Positions 19,696-25,419 of a stretch of 53,894 nucleotides of DNA are shown piece by piece; position 1 is the stretch's first letter; each line of letters starts with the position of its first letter. The translations under genes were made by a program, and so were the position numbers. The stretch is from a virus. Lineage: Duplodnaviria > Caudoviricetes. The notes under the pieces were generated by a model. The model did no database searches. It had not been told where the DNA came from and worked only from the letters and a program-made list of their open reading frames with translations. Location of the stretch: positions 1 through 53,894 of IMG/VR virus record IMGVR_UViG_3300050119_000052; one strand, given 5' to 3'.

Positions 19696-20322
19696 TCAGC
19701 CCGTGACGGCGATATTCCAGTCGCATTCCGAATCAATCGACAAGGAGTAAGTCCCCGCGCCGTGCTCGACGGTGCTGCTGTTGCCCTTGATCGCCATCTC
19801 GTTCACACCGGGCTTGGTGAAGTCGAGTTGGCCTTTGCTGTCGTTGATGTCGATCGCGAAGTTACCGGCCTGCCCGAAGTTGGTGCAATCGTAGTTGTAG
19901 GCGATCGTCCACTGGTCTTGCGTGACGGTGAAGTTCGCGGAGTTCTTGGTCCCGTTCCCGGCGAGGGTGAGTACCGTCTTCGCTGCGGTGTTCGGCTGCC
20001 CGCTGGCTGGTGGAGCGGCCACGTTCGAGGCGCCGGATGAACTGGCCGCGATGATGTTCGTCGAGGCGGTCTGGTTCGACTTGCCGCCGCCGCTGGCGAT
20101 CGACACGATGATGACGATCAGGATGATGAGTCCAACGCCGCCGAGGAGACTGTTACGGATGCGGTGGTGCTTCTTCTTGGGTGGCTTCCCCGGTACGTAG
20201 CCGGGCGGGGGCCCGTAGCCGGGGAGCGGCGCCCCGCCTGGCGCTTGAGTGTATTGGTAGGCCTGCGGCGGTAGTTGCCCTTGGGTTGGCTGCTGCCATT
20301 GAGGTGGGTCTTGGTACGTCAT
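19696..20322 (-). CDS. single-pass membrane protein with Pro/Gln-rich N-terminus (lysogenic cargo)
   Basis: MTYQDPPQWQQP..., KKKHHR then TM, then extracellular beta domain with two Cys; downstream of the integrase. Confidence 0.75.
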   Translation of the reverse strand: MTYQDPPQWQQPTQGQLPPQAYQYTQAPGGAPLPGYGPPPGYVPGKPPKKKHHRIRNSLLGGVGLIILIVIIVSIASGGGKSNQTASTNIIAASSSGASNVAAPPASGQPNTAAKTVLTLAGNGTKNSANFTVTQDQWTIAYNYDCTNFGQAGNFAIDINDSKGQLDFTKPGVNEMAIKGNSSTVEHGAGTYSLSIDSECDWNIAVTG

Positions 20323-20374
20323 CTGGTCCCCCTGTAGATATTGAGTGGATCGTGCGCTGAATGTCAGAGCGGTG

Positions 20375-21265
20375 TCAAGCGACGAGGTGCAGGTTACGAG
20401 GCACCGGCAGACTGCGAATCGCGGCAACCCGTTGATCGAGTCCGATCTCGGTGTACATGACAGTGCTCGCGATATTGGTGTGCCGCATCAGTCGTTGGAC
20501 CAGAGCGACATTACCGGTCGATTCGAGCAATTCCGTTCCAAAGGTATGACGAAGGGAATGGGGGGTCAGCGGTCGACCAAGGCCGGCGCGGCGCATCACC
20601 ATGCTGAGGATGTGACTGGCGCTGTTCGCGAGGATCGCTTCATCGGGATTCTGATAACTGGGGAACCAGAATCCTTCGGACGGCATCCACGCGGCGACCT
20701 CGGCGACGAGCGGATGGAGTGGCACCTCGTCGTAAGTGCCACCCTTTCCGACGACACCGATCATTTCGCCCTTGATGTCCTCGCCGCGGAACTTCGCGAT
20801 CTCCATGACCCGGAAACCCTGATAGGCGCCGAGCAGGATCATCGGCAGTGTGCGCGGGTGAACTCGGGCCGCTAGGAGCTCGTTCAGCTGACAGCGCGTG
20901 AGAGGTCGTGGTTTGCGGCGAATCGGTTTGCCTCGGTGGAGCTGGAGCATCGGATCGTCGGCGCGCAAGCCGGTCTGATTGAGCCAGTTGAACCAGCTCC
21001 GCAGGTTCGAGCGATAGTTCTGCTGGGTGCCGGGTGAAAGGGGCGCCAAGAAGCCTGTGACGTCCCGCCAGTCGGCCGTCAATGGGTCGATGCCCATGCG
21101 CCTCTCGAAGAGACCGACCGTCTCGATGCGTCCTCGGATGGTTTTGGGCGCGAGACCACCGGCCTGCATCCATGTTTCCCAAGCGTGAAGTTTGTCCCCG
21201 ATCACCGATGCATCATGGTCCGTCGACTCAGCGTAAACAAGCCTTAACTTCGAGTTGAACTTCAT
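20375..21265 (-). CDS. int: tyrosine integrase lacking an obvious N-terminal arm-binding domain
   Basis: GFRVMEI (R), GKGG (K), HSLRH, MRHTNIASTVMY (H, Y); C-terminus LHLVA; exact start uncertain. Confidence 0.92.
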   Translation of the reverse strand: MKFNSKLRLVYAESTDHDASVIGDKLHAWETWMQAGGLAPKTIRGRIETVGLFERRMGIDPLTADWRDVTGFLAPLSPGTQQNYRSNLRSWFNWLNQTGLRADDPMLQLHRGKPIRRKPRPLTRCQLNELLAARVHPRTLPMILLGAYQGFRVMEIAKFRGEDIKGEMIGVVGKGGTYDEVPLHPLVAEVAAWMPSEGFWFPSYQNPDEAILANSASHILSMVMRRAGLGRPLTPHSLRHTFGTELLESTGNVALVQRLMRHTNIASTVMYTEIGLDQRVAAIRSLPVPRNLHLVA

Positions 21266-21673
21266 CTAGGATGCCACCTCAATCGATGTCCGCTTTGTAC
21301 GCCATTCCCTCAGGTCGACCACAGAACCATTCGCTAGGTAATCGAAGGGTTGCTGGTTCGAGTCCAGCCGGGGGAGCACACCCGTCGAGTCGGGCGGCGG
21401 CGTGGTGCCATTGGGGCGTGAGGTCATGAAGCGCCAGATCGGAATCTGGAGCAGCCTGGCGAGACGGTCCAGGTCGTCTACGTCGAGCGCCTGGTCAGCC
21501 GTGCTGATGCGCCGACTCCAATAGGACTGCGAGTTGCCGAGCAGCTTCGGCAATCTGTTGATCGTGATCTTTGCTTTTGCGAGTTCCGAGCGCACTTCGG
21601 TGGCAACGCGCCCGCGGGCGCTCGACCGATCGGGCATCGGAACGACGTTGCTCATACCATCATTGTTCGTCAT
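21266..21673 (-). CDS. immunity repressor (HTH) containing attP in its 3' part
   Basis: HTH-like segment GNSQSYWSRRIS...LDVDDLDRLARLLQIP; divergent from cro; leaderless start at 21673. Confidence 0.85.
   Translation of the reverse strand: MTNNDGMSNVVPMPDRSSARGRVATEVRSELAKAKITINRLPKLLGNSQSYWSRRISTADQALDVDDLDRLARLLQIPIWRFMTSRPNGTTPPPDSTGVLPRLDSNQQPFDYLANGSVVDLREWRTKRTSIEVAS
21339..21376 (+). other. attP: attP core = 3' half of a tRNA (probably Asn-GTT)
   Basis: TAATCGAAGGGTT-GCTGG-TTCGAGT-CCAGC-CGGGGGA-G: anticodon 3' strand, T-arm, acceptor strand, G discriminator; no 5' half. Confidence 0.85.
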
Positions 21674-21679
21674 GCGGTC

Positions 21680-21708
21680 AATATAGCCCCTCACCGGATA
21701 CTTGCCAA
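21680..21708 (-). promoter_or_regulatory. repressor promoter (leaderless)
   Basis: TTGGCA-17-TATATT, 6 nt before ATG. Confidence 0.8.
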
Positions 21709-21715
21709 GGAAGGT

Positions 21716-21726
21716 GATTGACAATC
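21716..21726. promoter_or_regulatory. palindromic operator GATTGACAATC
   Basis: Lies between the divergent promoters; identical 11-mer at 38769-38779. Confidence 0.55.
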
Positions 21727-21758
21727 TCCTGTCCATGGGGATGTTAGTCGCTCAAGGG

Positions 21759-21787
21759 TTGACACAAGCCCATCATGCGGCTAACTT
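21759..21787 (+). promoter_or_regulatory. early lytic (cro) promoter, leaderless
   Basis: TTGACA-17-TAACTT, 6 nt before ATG 21794. Confidence 0.85.
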
Positions 21788-21793
21788 GACCAC

Positions 21794-22027
21794 ATGGCAA
21801 CCAACACCACCGCTGCGCGGGTAGCTGGGAAGGTCCGAGCCGCTCTCGCAGAAGCGCGGGTATCGCGCCAGTCCATCGCCGACGCGCTTGGAATCTCACT
21901 CTCGGCCATCACCCGGCGCCTCAACGCTGAGATCCCATTCGATGTGGCCGAGCTGGACAAGATCGCCGAGCGCCTCGACCTTCCGATGAATGCGCTGATC
22001 GTGACGCCAGATCAGGTGGCGTCGTGA
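21794..22027 (+). CDS. cro: Cro-like HTH protein
   Basis: SRQSIADALGISLSAITRRLNAEIPFDVAELDKIA, an XRE-type HTH. Confidence 0.85.
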   Translation: MATNTTAARVAGKVRAALAEARVSRQSIADALGISLSAITRRLNAEIPFDVAELDKIAERLDLPMNALIVTPDQVAS

Positions 22028-22141
22028 TCCGAGTCTGGCTGAGTTGGTGCTGGCTTTGGTCGGGTTCTGTGTGGCGTACGTGGTGACCCGGCGGGTCCTA
22101 GCCCGTCTACGAACGGATCAGCGATGACCGCAACTAAGACT

Positions 22142-22260
22142 CCCCACCACGCCAAGACGGCGACGTCACCCAGAGGTCCAGCGCGTGGTGGGGCCAAAAC
22201 TTCCAGCTTCCCCGGCAGCCAACCGGAACACGACACCCAACGGCGACTCGCTGCCGGGGA
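22142..22260 (+). ncRNA. TIGR-like stem-loop array, block 1 (units 1-2)
   Basis: Spacer pairs AGACGGCGA/GAGGTCCAG and ACCGGAACA/ACGGCGACT, each in stem-CCA-N9-CG(T/A)CACCCA-N9-CG-stem. Confidence 0.85.
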
Positions 22261-22282
22261 CCACTACTCAGCGGGGGAACAC

Positions 22283-22756
22283 ATGACCGGATTCAAAGAA
22301 ATCGTAGGCGACGTGCTGGAACACAGCGCCCGCAACGACCCCAACGAACTCGCAGAAGAGATCATGGGTCGGCTCACCCTGCCGCAGATCCGTGAAGGGC
22401 TAGCGCTCGCCCTCCCGGAGTACGTCCGACACGCGTTCCATCGCATCACCTACACCCCCGACCCTGACCCGTCTCGGCGAGTCAGGCAGGCGGCGGGGGC
22501 GTGGGATCGGCACAAGCAGCTCCTCGCTGTCCGCAAGCTGGGGTTGGAGGACTGGAAGCCGTTCGGGGAGTTCACCGCTGCGGATTGCACTGCGGCGGCG
22601 GAGTTGCGGCGGTTGAAGGCGTCGGAGTCGACGGCGCGAGCGGTCAAGTTCGACGCGACGGCTGAGGCTGTTGTGGCTGCGGGTGTCGCGTGTGTCGCGG
22701 ACCTGCCTGCTGATGTGCTTCTCGGTTTGTGGGGTAGCCATGACCTCGGCGAATAA
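22283..22756 (+). CDS. hypothetical 157-aa protein embedded in the array (candidate Tas partner)
   Basis: RBS GGGGGAACAC-ATG nearly identical to that of the tas gene; flanked by array blocks on both sides. Confidence 0.75.
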   Translation: MTGFKEIVGDVLEHSARNDPNELAEEIMGRLTLPQIREGLALALPEYVRHAFHRITYTPDPDPSRRVRQAAGAWDRHKQLLAVRKLGLEDWKPFGEFTAADCTAAAELRRLKASESTARAVKFDATAEAVVAAGVACVADLPADVLLGLWGSHDLGE

Positions 22757-22760
22757 GACC

Positions 22761-23050
22761 TCCCCGGCAGCCAGACCGCCTACGTCACCCACAAGGGCAC
22801 CGCTGCCGGGGACCCAAACCACCGCCACGCCACGCTGGTCGCGTCACCCACATCTGGTTCGCGTGGCGGTCCTATTCGACCCCGGCAGCCAAAGCCGCGC
22901 CGTCACCCATGTCGTGGGCGCTGCCGGGGTCCATATTCCCCCACCACGCCAGAGGTCGACCGTCACCCAACGCCCACACGCGTGGTGGGTTCACACGTCC
23001 CCGGCAGCCAGCCCGCAGCCGTCACCCAGACGAGGCACGCTGCCGGGGAC
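22761..23050 (+). ncRNA. TIGR-like stem-loop array, block 2 (units 3-7)
   Basis: About 59-nt period. Spacers GACCGCCTA/CAAGGGCAC, CGCTGGTCG/CATCTGGTT, AAGCCGCGC/TGTCGTGGG, GAGGTCGAC/ACGCCCACA, GCCCGCAGC/GACGAGGCA; invariant CGTCACCCA loop repeat. Confidence 0.9.
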
Positions 23051-23070
23051 CTCACTCATCGGGGGACCAC

Positions 23071-23805
23071 ATGACTGACCTCTACGACCCACTCCTCGGC
23101 AACCTCGCCGCCACAGTCGACGACCTCGAGATGGTTCGGAAAGCCGCCGAGAACCGTCTACGGCAGTTGACTAGGACCGGCGTCGACAAAGACGGCACCT
23201 CACGCGGCTTCGGACTACCCGAAGACCACCTATCCGTCCAAGCGGCCACAGTCATCGTCGACGGACTCAAGCGAGTCGAACACCAAGCGATCCTGCTGTT
23301 ACAGCGCCAACTCCGCACCCACCCACTACACCCGTGGATCAAGGCCCAAAACGGGCTGGGTGAGAAAACCGTCGCCCGACTGCTCGCCGCGATCCAGGAC
23401 CCGTACTGGAACGACCGACACGACCGCCCCCGCACCGTTGGTGAGCTGTTCAAGTTCTGCGGTGTCGCCGGCCCCGGTCAGCGTAAGCGGAAGGGTGAAC
23501 GGGTCACGTGGTCGCCTGAGGCGCGGATGCGATTGCACGTGATCATCGAGCCGATCGTGAAGAATCGGCGGTCGCCCTATCGGGCGGTTTACGACCAGGC
23601 GCGGGTCAAGTACGCGGAGAAGACGCACACGGAGGTGTGTGTGCGGTGCGGCCCGGCGGGTAAGCCTGCGCTGGTTGGGTCGCCGTGGCCGCCGGCTCAT
23701 CAGCATGCGGCCGCGATGCGCCTGGTGAAGCGTGCAGTTCTGCGCGGGCTGTGGGAAGAATCCCGCCGGTTGCATGGTGCCGACGAACTGAAGGTCGCAG
23801 CATGA
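23071..23805 (+). CDS. Nop-domain/IS110 C-terminal-like RNA-binding protein without a nuclease domain (TasA-like)
   Basis: 244 aa; coiled coil (RKAAENRLRQL), then WIKAQNGLGEKTVARLLAAI...TVGELFKFCGVA...RKGERVTWSPEARMRL...YRAVYD...HAAAMRLVKRAVLRGLW. No RuvC/DEDD N-terminus. Flanked by dual-spacer arrays. Confidence 0.82.
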   Translation: MTDLYDPLLGNLAATVDDLEMVRKAAENRLRQLTRTGVDKDGTSRGFGLPEDHLSVQAATVIVDGLKRVEHQAILLLQRQLRTHPLHPWIKAQNGLGEKTVARLLAAIQDPYWNDRHDRPRTVGELFKFCGVAGPGQRKRKGERVTWSPEARMRLHVIIEPIVKNRRSPYRAVYDQARVKYAEKTHTEVCVRCGPAGKPALVGSPWPPAHQHAAAMRLVKRAVLRGLWEESRRLHGADELKVAA

Positions 23806-23816
23806 CCACTCAAACT

Positions 23817-23984
23817 CCCGCCACGCCAGCCATCTGCCGACACCCAGCTCTCTCGCGCGTGGCGGGGCTCAACTACCCCGGCAGCCATGGGCCTGGCGTC
23901 ACCCAAGCGATGACCGCTGCCGGGGTCCTAAACGAATCGTCGCGCCAAGTCCCAGCCGTCACCCATCAGAGGGCCGCCCGTCGG
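23817..23984 (+). ncRNA. TIGR-like stem-loop array, block 3 (units 8-10; last stem degenerate)
   Basis: Spacers GCCATCTGC/GCTCTCTCG, TGGGCCTGG/AGCGATGAC, AGTCCCAGC/TCAGAGGGC. Confidence 0.85.
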
Positions 23985-24007
23985 AGGCTTCCCGTCGGTG
24001 GTGGGTC

Positions 24008-24631
24008 ATGACCAGCACCGAAGAGGCCAGCGGCGATCTGCGACCGTGCCCGCGCTGCAATGGACGGGGGACCGTTCACAGCAAAGAGGTTGTCCACGGC
24101 ACGCTCTACGCGGCCACTCGTCTCCGCTGCCGATGCGATCTCTGCTCTGCTGCTCGCCGGGATTACGACTCAGCTCGATTGGGTCACCGGATCCGGTCTC
24201 GCGCAGAGCAGAAGCAGGCGCGACTCGAGTCGGCCGGAGAGTTCATCACCCTTCACCAGTCAGGCCTGACGATCGCGGAGATAGCGGCCAAGGTGAACCG
24301 GTCGATCAACTTCGTTGCTGGCGCGTTGCATGAAGCGGGATATCAGCCGCGGCGGGGTATTACCGCGACTTTCCTCGAGCACGGAACCCGCGCGTACAAG
24401 GTCCGCACAGGCTGCCGCTGCGATCTGTGCCGCGCTGCCGTCACCCGCGAGAAGAAGGAAGCGCGCCAGCGGCGCCACGAAGCCATGCTCGCTGGCCAAG
24501 TGAACCCGCCGCACGGATCGACCAGCACCTACAGCAACTACACCTGCCGCTGCGATCTGTGCCGCGCTGCGTGGTCGGTCCGTATGCGCGAACAACGCCA
24601 GCGCCGGAAGCCACCGAGAGGCCGGTCATGA
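24008..24631 (+). CDS. zinc-finger (HG..Y..CRC..C x3) + HTH DNA-binding protein
   Basis: Three HG-x-CRCDLC repeats flanking GLTIAEIAAKVNRS. Confidence 0.7.
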   Translation: MTSTEEASGDLRPCPRCNGRGTVHSKEVVHGTLYAATRLRCRCDLCSAARRDYDSARLGHRIRSRAEQKQARLESAGEFITLHQSGLTIAEIAAKVNRSINFVAGALHEAGYQPRRGITATFLEHGTRAYKVRTGCRCDLCRAAVTREKKEARQRRHEAMLAGQVNPPHGSTSTYSNYTCRCDLCRAAWSVRMREQRQRRKPPRGRS

Positions 24632-24936
24632 CAACTACGAGCATCGAACTCATCGCCTGCCCGCAGCCCAAGTAAGTAATCGGCCGCCGTGGGGGCGATC
24701 CCTCGGCGGCCTGCCAGTCCCAAGCCCTCTGAAAGGAATGGACCAGCAATGACCAGCATAGAACAGCCACAGCAGGAAACCCCCCATAGCAGCGAGGGGG
24801 CGTCGCTCGGTGTCGTGGCCCGGGCGACGACCCCTCGTCCAACCCCTGGCAGCCGGTTGCCGTCGTTTCTTGATGAGGGTTGGACGAAGCCCCCGGGCCG
24901 GCGAGGCCCTGGTTGGTTGCGGCGCAGGTGGGCCCG

Positions 24937-25419
24937 ATGAACGACCTCGAAGAGATGCTGAGCGATTTCGCCGATTTGGCGAAGAAGGTCTCCAGCTCGG
25001 ATTACCAATGGGGCATGAATAAGCTGCTCGCGTTTAAGCGGTTGGTGCTGAGCCAATTGCCGTTCGGCGAGGGTGACCGGGTAGCGATCGCGGACAGCTG
25101 GCGCGGGCCAGAGCGGGGTGGTTGGTGGCCTCATCGCGAATGGATGCGACCTGGCCAGACGGGGACGGTTCGGGAGATCGATATCTACCCAGATTCTTTG
25201 CGCCTGCGCGCGGTCACCAAGTTCGATACCGAATGGGAACTCTCCGACTGGCCAGCTGACAACGGGCGTCGGTTCAACAGGTTGTTCGACTATGACGGCG
25301 TCACACCCAGGGATCGCCGGCACGTCTTCCACTTCCAAGTCGAACATCTACGGGCTGCAACCGCCGCTGACAAGCCGTTCGGGTGCCCTGTCGATGCTTC
25401 TTGGGCGGTGTCGTCATGA
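24937..25419 (+). CDS. hypothetical early protein
   Basis: ATGA-coupled chain of early ORFs. Confidence 0.6.
   Translation: MNDLEEMLSDFADLAKKVSSSDYQWGMNKLLAFKRLVLSQLPFGEGDRVAIADSWRGPERGGWWPHREWMRPGQTGTVREIDIYPDSLRLRAVTKFDTEWELSDWPADNGRRFNRLFDYDGVTPRDRRHVFHFQVEHLRAATAADKPFGCPVDASWAVSS

Follow-up and report, generated by a model that had tools for sequence, protein, structure and literature searches.

In the 2025 description of TIGR-Tas, the system has two parts, an array and the Tas protein; the accessible text of that report finds no "clear associations with other proteins" for TasA other than ParB-like genes in occasional cases (Faure et al. 2025, PMC12045711). In stem-loop TIGR-TasA, as presented in the available portions of that article and of a second study (Xu et al. 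2026, 10.64898/2026.09.09.750476), a Tas protein consisting of the Nop domain only is accompanied by hairpin units with two 9-nucleotide (nt) spacers. The units are placed upstream or downstream of tas and sometimes inside its 5' end, the systems occur in phages and prophages, and CUU or CUC is enriched at the 5' base of the stem. Three questions are named as open in the accessible part of the second study: what nuclease-less TasA does natively, how stem-loop tigRNAs mature and where the spacers come from. The Tas proteins of stem-loop arrays lack the processing loop. The present analysis concerned a viral record of 53,894 nt from IMG/VR (IMGVR_UViG_3300050119_000052; the window, meaning the whole of this stretch), with completeness estimated at 77%, and in it an open reading frame (ORF) of 157 amino acids (aa), located at 22283..22756 on the plus strand within a stem-loop array and upstream of a tasA gene. 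In actinobacterial phages and prophages, the family of this ORF, designated fam157, supplies the conserved partner gene upstream of tasA in the stem-loop TIGR-TasA module. The usual gene order, on one strand, is fam157, tigRNA array and tasA, and the linkage of fam157 and tasA holds in both directions and in genomic settings that are otherwise unrelated. Neither TIGR-Tas as such nor the tasA gene and array of the window, which are ordinary members of it, is new; the novelty lies in the conserved partner gene of the actinophage module.

The tasA gene (23071..23805, plus strand) encodes a protein of 244 aa with the Nop domain only, which matched the NCBIfam model NF052498 (TIGR_Tas_endo) with an E-value of 1.2e-57 and 195.4 bits (cut-off 100) over profile positions 2-215 of 215. 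A profile of the Tas alignment with the window protein placed first (A1) detected the TasH chains (1.3e-13) and 9mty (4.5e-27) among PDB sequences. As these alignments covered 9mty only from residue 141 and TasH only from residue 113, the window Tas has no counterpart of the N-terminal nuclease; no Pfam domain, and hence no Pfam nuclease domain, was found in it at E ≤ 0.1. The Tas match, the absence of a nuclease domain and the tandem hairpin units place the locus, as judged from sequence, among the stem-loop TIGR-TasA systems of the kind described in the two reports, with which it shares the Nop-only Tas, the tandem hairpin units with two 9-nt spacers on either side of tas and the location in a phage. 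In the published form, as far as the available text goes, Tas and the array make up the whole system, whereas the actinophage module contains a second protein gene. The window Tas also matched phrog_4285 at 9e-88, where PHROGs gives the label "transposase", and Tas is annotated as a transposase in many phage records.

One protein gene has been published in an operon with tasA, namely tasParB, with arrays located upstream, downstream or between the two genes (accessible text of PMC12045711). TasParB is ParB-like and goes with dual-repeat arrays, whereas the fam157 protein has a helical model of no recognised fold, goes with stem-loop arrays and has no ParB match in Pfam; a search of the fam157 profile A2 against PDB sequences returned no ParB at E ≤ 10. 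The family as such is present in PHROGs as phrog_4604, which carries no function and no stated link to Tas. No mention of fam157 was found in the TIGR-Tas texts searched, the supplementary tables and figures of which may list neighbours. The family was probably missed earlier because its members share about 30% identity and would be split by the clustering of neighbours at 50% identity that is described in the accessible text of Faure et al. 2025 (PMC12045711).

The array of the window comprises ten units with a period of 59 nt and two alternating stem sequences. All ten could be parsed as CCA-N9-CG[T/A]CACCCA-N9-C between the arms of a stem of about 10 bp, each unit having two variable 9-nt spacers on the two sides of a conserved loop, with the conserved CCA, CG[T/A]CACCCA and C flanking the spacers. 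Hairpin folds were obtained for nine of the ten, with energies of -22.6 to -35.7 kcal/mol and z values of -2.4 to -5.9. The first part of the array (22142..22260, plus strand) is formed by units U1 (22142-22193) and U2 (22209-22260), with folds of -29.0 and -26.3 kcal/mol and z values of -3.4 and -4.1. The second part (22761..23049, plus strand) lies between the ORF and tasA and contains U3-U7, which fold at -22.6 to -35.7 kcal/mol and have stems alternating between CCCCGGCAGC/GCTGCCGGGG and CCACCACGCC/GCGTGGTGG. About 10 nt after the tasA stop codon the third part begins (23816..23992, plus strand), with U8, U9 and U10. The last of these (23932-23992) keeps CCA-N9-CGTCACCCA-N9-C, has lost its stem (z +1.5) and is a degenerate terminal unit, as described for array ends. 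No Rfam family was detected in 21000-24800, and a sigma-70 scan, which was not tuned to actinobacteria, revealed no plus-strand promoter and no terminator inside the array.

The 157-aa ORF starts with ATG at 22283 and ends with the stop codon TAA at 22754-22756. It is preceded by the hairpin unit CCCCGGCAGC...GCTGCCGGGG at 22209-22260, and the next unit begins 4 nt past its stop, at 22761. The leader of the ORF (22261..22282, plus strand) is nearly identical to that of tasA (23050..23070, plus strand), the latter being preceded by the unit at 22998-23049. From the 3' hairpin arm to ATGAC, 34 of 39 aligned columns were identical with one gap, and a repeat search found a repeat (D8) covering both leaders with 20/22 identical positions. 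In both leaders the hairpin is separated from the ATG by about 21-22 nt and GGGGGA, a likely ribosome-binding site, lies 6 nt before the ATG. The claim of the original prediction that the ORF is embedded in the array and has a leader like that of tas was thus borne out, with units on both sides of the ORF; the shared leader is particular to the window and was not seen in the other loci read.

A public gene call (P0001) starts the ORF at 22124 and gives it 210 aa, the extension crossing two array units. The 157-aa start was preferred because the family profile aligns to the ORF only from 22289 on and the relatives are mostly 146-200 aa long. Upstream extension by gene callers through array units was observed for Tas genes as well as for the ORF; the listed length of many Tas homologues is 300-420 aa, against a conserved part of about 240 aa. 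Seventy units had their midpoint inside the Tas-aligned stretch, and translated array sequence may account for some of the N-terminal extensions of Tas.

When 1.84 billion cluster representatives were searched exhaustively with HMMER, 243 relatives of the ORF were identified at E ≤ 1e-3, 12 of them at E ≤ 1e-10; the best 150 of the 243 were mostly 146-200 aa long and aligned end to end. An apparent lack of relatives, indicated by tblastn of the ORF against 50,697 phage records (nothing at 1e-3) and by a word-indexed protein search (the ORF itself only), was overturned by this result. Against the family hidden Markov model the ORF scored 3e-43, with profile positions 9-163 aligned. Among library families it matched only phrog_4604 (PHROGs v4, no function given; 9.2e-9, residues 7-145), and no family was assigned to it in Pfam (E ≤ 0.1), NCBIfam (above cut-off) or PADLOC. 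In the one metatranscriptome run that contains part of the window, two contigs of 151 nt were identical to 22329-22618, inside the ORF, which is a weak hint of transcription, as DNA carry-over is possible. The contigs of this run did not cover the array or tasA, and assembled contigs cannot show RNA ends. The ORF at 22283-22756 is a real gene belonging to fam157, a fast-evolving family of proteins of about 160 aa.

To follow the linkage from the side of Tas, an alignment of 34 Tas sequences was used to fetch 62 viral and 31 bacterial loci, and the six-frame ORFs of these 93 loci were scanned with a profile built from 150 fam157 members. The scan detected fam157 at 88 of the 93 loci, in 88/88 cases upstream of tas and on the same strand. 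The gap between the aligned ends of fam157 and tas had a median of 360 nt (interquartile range 272-421), the value for the window being 333 nt. Dereplication by Tas identity left the result in place, with fam157 present at 73/78 loci at 90%, 53/58 at 70% and 15/19 at 60% identity, and adjacency, order and strand of the pair were kept down to about 35% Tas identity. Among the misses, L011 had no upstream DNA, and L098 and L099 had a weak match in an ORF of about 150 aa in the fam157 position (4e-6 and 1e-3 when 7 ORFs were scanned). A search for related loci with a single Tas protein had confirmed none. The gene-neighbourhood analysis strongly favoured the proposal of a "second component" for the tasA module, with fam157 directly upstream of tasA at nearly all Tas loci and the array between or around the two genes.

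The neighbours of tas were compared by an all-against-all search of ORFs located from -4 to +3 kb of tas in 58 dereplicated loci. The only conserved neighbour was fam157: by BLAST linkage Tas was found in 58 loci and fam157 in 52, and the next real family in 6/58. Two neighbour groups present in 47 and 44 loci proved to be antisense shadow ORFs inside tas. Distances of fam157 and Tas were correlated (Mantel r 0.41, a value reached by 0/2000 permutations), and fam157 diverges faster, with a mean p-distance of 0.74 vs 0.47 for Tas. Such a correlation is expected anyway, because the genes are linked.

The fam157-tasA pair was present in 8/8 actinophages inspected (Rich, prophiFSAT01-1, Morrissey, Buttons, Omega, LonelyBoi, Peregrin and Talia1610), in varied positions. 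Rich has it after a helicase gene, prophiFSAT01-1 amid small early genes and Morrissey close to the DNA polymerase gene; in Buttons it is flanked by the immunity repressor and a Cas4-like exonuclease, and in LonelyBoi it directly follows cro. In Omega (L108, 3477-5005) the fam157-array-tas module (gp22 and gp21) has the orientation opposite to that of the surrounding block of head and tail genes, and it looks like an inserted mobile cassette.

The search starting from fam157 was performed with a 20-sequence subset and a degenerate DNA pattern of W-K-x-L-G-D-C-T, since the family as a whole was too divergent for a pattern search. Among viral contigs it yielded 10 distinct fam157-bearing contigs, and 9/10 had tasA directly downstream; for one of the nine the pattern-scan locus ends at the fam157 gene and its Tas is known from L052. 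Metagenome contigs gave 71 pattern matches, of which 24 were chance matches and 47 were fam157. Of these 47, 36 had tasA downstream on the same strand, 9 had less than 600 nt of downstream sequence, and 2 had 600-1499 nt with no Tas match, so that tasA was found on 36/38 testable contigs. Of the two contigs with no Tas match, L176 has 12 array units followed by an ORF at the contig end, whose first codons resemble the N-terminus of Tas by eye; with at least 12 consecutive units after fam157 (395-1367), this is the longest array among the loci analysed here. The fam157 match of the other, L131, was doubtful and covered 93 nt.

In five whole bacterial genomes a single fam157 match each was detected, beside tas. 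Fam157 of the Buttons type was found in 83 phage records and Tas in 93, of which 83 were mycobacteriophages; the overlap was compared among the matches listed. About 80 sequenced cluster A mycobacteriophages appear to carry the fam157-tasA pair. A sample of 400 other Actinomycetota genomes gave 7 weak partial matches, which were counted as noise, and the sample therefore had no power; three of these matches (L101, L103 and L104), scanned against Pfam, lie in frames that cross unrelated genes (DsbA, superoxide dismutase and a helix-turn-helix (HTH) protein).

The presence of the array in the pair loci was evaluated with a unit detector (8-nt arms with ≤1 mismatch, then C[AC], N13-16, CCA and N9-11), which recovered 9/10 units of the window along with 3 stray matches in 53.9 kb. 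At least one unit was detected in the fam157-tas gap of 75/88 pair loci (311 units), whereas elsewhere the background was 0.07 units per kb and the opposite-strand pattern occurred at 0.017 per kb. Units within 400 nt upstream of fam157 were found in 16/88 pair loci and units downstream of tas in 21/88. Units on both sides of fam157, as in the window, are thus the less common layout, and the usual order is fam157, array and tasA. In the 58 dereplicated loci, CTT was present within -6 to +4 of the 5' stem base in 102/347 units compared with 58/1160 random 10-mers, which fits the published CUU motif and an RNA of the same sense as the genes. In the window, CTT was seen by eye only in U2.

The AlphaFold2 model of the 157-aa protein, based on an alignment of 107 sequences, had a mean predicted local distance difference test (pLDDT) score of 91.0. 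Its six helices span residues 4-14, 20-30, 33-54, 65-82, 99-133 and 143-150, with a single beta-hairpin at 84-93 between the fourth and the fifth, in agreement with the earlier description of the protein as mostly helical. The N-terminal domain folded alone had a pLDDT of 92.5. In the fam157 alignment of the 107 sequences, with an identity between members of about 30%, no column was invariant. The nearly invariant ones were P20, L44, A106, A113 and A120, the three alanines being placed exactly seven residues apart on the long helix. Twelve positions (5, 9, 37, 49, 56, 66, 71, 76, 84, 92, 109 and 110) were mostly occupied by Arg or Lys. These features speak against an enzyme and suggest that a helix of fam157 is closely packed onto that of a partner and that the protein binds nucleic acid.

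Fold searches gave weak matches, with no nuclease among them in either Foldseek or VIA-align. Foldseek of the model against the PDB returned no match at E ≤ 0.001; the best VIA-align Z was 5.3 for the whole model, covering residues 99-156 (the C-terminal helix) only, and 4.5 for the N-terminal domain alone. In BFVD three proteins were matched at E ≤ 1e-3, Omega gp22 among them, followed by Rich gp51 at 1.9e-3, and the ESM Atlas gave no usable match. No sequence relatives of fam157 were found in the PDB by a profile search; a match to a designed long Rop protein (E 0.0025) was attributed to helix composition and not to homology. A shared origin of fam157 and Tas was likewise rejected (hhalign probability 0.2%). 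Complex prediction for TasA and the ORF product, with both entered as alignments and controls not run, gave a score of 0.00 and a mark of 0.32, which speaks neither for nor against binding.

On balance, the linkage makes it somewhat probable that fam157 is a functional accessory of the actinophage TIGR-TasA module, and the protein is best pictured as a non-enzymatic, nucleic-acid-binding accessory working with the TasA-tigRNA particle. It would be composed of a three-helix N-terminal domain, a flexible basic linker and helix, the W-K-x-L-G-D-C-T beta-hairpin and a long helix with heptad-spaced alanines. In its most likely role, fam157 would bind the hairpin-rich precursor transcribed just 3' of its own gene and, once bound, would help in the maturation of tigRNAs or their loading onto TasA. 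The next most likely role would be coupling of the DNA-bound TasA particle to a downstream effect. In the window, both messenger RNAs would carry an identical 22-nt leader once the hairpin units were excised, and this would promote synthesis of fam157 and TasA in matched amounts.

According to the accessible text of Faure et al. 2025 (PMC12045711), Tas particles are structurally related to archaeal and eukaryotic box C/D ribonucleoproteins. Should fam157 prove to be a subunit, the latter would be, by analogy only, its nearest working counterpart; no similarity of fam157 to L7Ae or fibrillarin was found in any search. In box C/D particles the Nop protein Nop5 sits on a hairpin guide RNA together with the small partners L7Ae and fibrillarin.

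A bolder version of the accessory reading appears doubtful: fam157 would be a dedicated third component, an RNA-binding protein encoded immediately before the array on a shared transcript, which captures nascent hairpins and is required for tigRNA maturation or TasA loading. If true, it would answer how stem-loop tigRNAs are made. An alternative bold reading is that fam157 is needed to build or renew the array itself, a process with no known machinery. TIGR-Tas is under development as a compact programmable DNA binder, and a protein that has kept its association with tasA and the array despite sequence divergence of about 65% and in many contexts offers a handle on the open questions of these systems. 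The pair is directly testable in the easily engineered phages of Mycobacterium smegmatis.

Several observations weigh against an accessory role. The available text of Xu et al. 2026 (10.64898/2026.09.09.750476) reports that MbTasA, PlTasA and FpTasA bind their targets and repress or activate with tigRNA only, and that stem-loop arrays are processed in E. coli, for which the authors favour a host RNase. As published TasA with nothing but tigRNA already binds and represses, a partner is not generally required, and the premise of the original prediction, that a nuclease-less Tas needs one, is weakened. In the accessible part of the same source, the legend of a Bifidobacterium longum construct mentions downstream coding sequences only, and its upstream fam157 content is not visible. 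Among the most divergent Tas loci, L058 had no detectable fam157 and L097 gave a marginal match (0.13). The family was also absent from 2/2 non-actinophage Tas phages inspected, Microcystis Mvi-JY20 and Salicola CGphi29 (TasH), and none of 120 Tas homologues was fused to fam157. The libraries and fold searches yielded no known fold or family that hints at the function of fam157, and the mechanism outlined above is derived from the arrangement of the genes and the amino-acid composition of the family. Moreover, a compact mobile cassette would keep the pair together and give a positive Mantel correlation with no functional dependence between the genes. Homologues occurring independently of tas and arrays, named beforehand as the finding that would count against a partner, were limited to one clear orphan, the IMG/VR contig L114/L122, with fam157 (5e-34) and neither tas nor array. 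On this contig (L114, 4004-4706) the orphan is followed by a 48-aa ORF, ribbon-helix-helix-like by eye, and then by a convergent gene for the terminase large subunit.

The best surviving alternative to the accessory role, itself unlikely, is that fam157 regulates the transcription, read-through or stability of the array and tasA, in the manner of an autoregulator or antiterminator, and is not a subunit of the particle. Its position would suit such a function, as fam157 is always the first gene of the module, upstream of 3-12 stable GC-rich hairpins through which RNA polymerase has to pass on its way to tasA, and stands directly after cro in the early operon both in the window and in LonelyBoi; a basic helix and a small three-helix N-terminal domain are likewise compatible with a regulator. 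However, no HTH or other regulator family was matched by fam157, and the best Z of the N-terminal domain was only that given above. Control of read-through also fits less well with the 13/88 loci in which no unit was detected in the fam157-tas gap, some of them having units upstream of fam157 instead. In addition, stem-loop arrays were expressed in E. coli from native loci, in constructs of which the fam157 content is not visible.

Less likely again is the idea that fam157 is a co-inherited neighbour within a cassette and has a function of its own unrelated to TasA. The module was found in many genome contexts, as would be the case for a mobile cassette; the orphan on L114 and the much faster evolution of fam157 than of Tas point in the same direction. 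Phage genomes are mosaic, however, and the flanks of the pair are otherwise unconserved (6/58 loci for the next real family), yet fam157 and tasA are still adjacent at 88/93 Tas loci and on 36/38 testable metagenome contigs found from fam157 alone. Much more frequent loss or replacement would be expected of an unrelated neighbour.

It seems improbable that fam157 restrains TasA, whether as an inhibitor or as a safety partner akin to an antitoxin or anti-CRISPR protein that protects phage DNA or times the action of TasA. In favour of this idea are the small size, rapid evolution and non-enzymatic nature of fam157, the location of its gene immediately before the presumed target, and, in the window, the matched leaders of fam157 and tasA. 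There is no direct evidence for inhibition, though, and no excess of self-targets that would need protection: the ten tigRNAs had 32 matches with ≤3 mismatches in the 53.9-kb window, compared with 13-32 in 10 shuffled-spacer controls.

It is very improbable that fam157 is the missing enzyme, either a DNA nuclease effector or an RNase cutting tigRNAs, even though its tight linkage to the array and tasA would be in keeping with one. The nearly invariant columns hold Pro, Leu and three Ala, with no invariant column and no invariant polar residue; no match to a nuclease family was obtained in Pfam, NCBIfam or PADLOC, the uniformly weak fold matches included no nuclease, and the model is helical with only a two-strand hairpin. 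With no catalytic residues apparent in the alignment, a nuclease or RNase role is unlikely. The "second component" of the original prediction is supported as a conserved neighbour and is unlikely as an enzymatic effector or processing factor. Finally, a chance frame in the GC-rich DNA between units, which does yield many long spurious ORFs, several of them overlapping this one on both strands, is refuted by 243 homologue clusters of matching length, the confident fold, the conserved position at 88/93 loci and the PHROG match.

The fam157 gene, the array and tasA of the window are surrounded by a temperate-phage control region. On the minus strand it includes a tyrosine integrase gene (20375-21265) and a repressor-like HTH gene (21266-21736), the latter divergent from a gene for a Cro-like HTH protein of 77 aa (21794..22027, plus strand). 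The Cro-like protein matched Pfam HTH_3 (2.5e-6) and BetR (2.4e-9) as well as the transcriptional repressor family phrog_4583 (9.3e-16), and its gene is the first of a rightward early operon running into the fam157-array-tasA module. After cro, the order on the plus strand is 2 units, the 157-aa ORF, 5 units, the 244-aa gene, 3 units and a gene of 207 aa.

The 207-aa gene (24008-24631, plus strand), which follows the last unit, encodes a protein with three cysteine repeats of the C-R-C-D-L-C type and an HTH-like middle part. Its matches in PHROGs, to families carrying the labels HNH endonuclease or HTH, were weak, and in Pfam nothing exceeded the cut-off. The same repeated CRCxxC motif is also present in the protein encoded directly 3' of tas in a low-GC phage contig that lacks fam157 (L058, 5728-6324, plus strand). 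The CRCxxC gene is not a general neighbour, as no downstream family was found in more than 6/58 loci. Between the integrase gene and the repressor-like gene, the sequence GGTTCGAGTCCAGCCGGGGGAGCACA at 21335-21385 resembles the T-arm and 3' end of a tRNA. ARAGORN reported no tRNA in 20000-25000, and thus no whole tRNA at this position, and GGTTCGAGTCCAGCCGGGGGAGCACA would fit the core of an attP site for integration into a tRNA gene.

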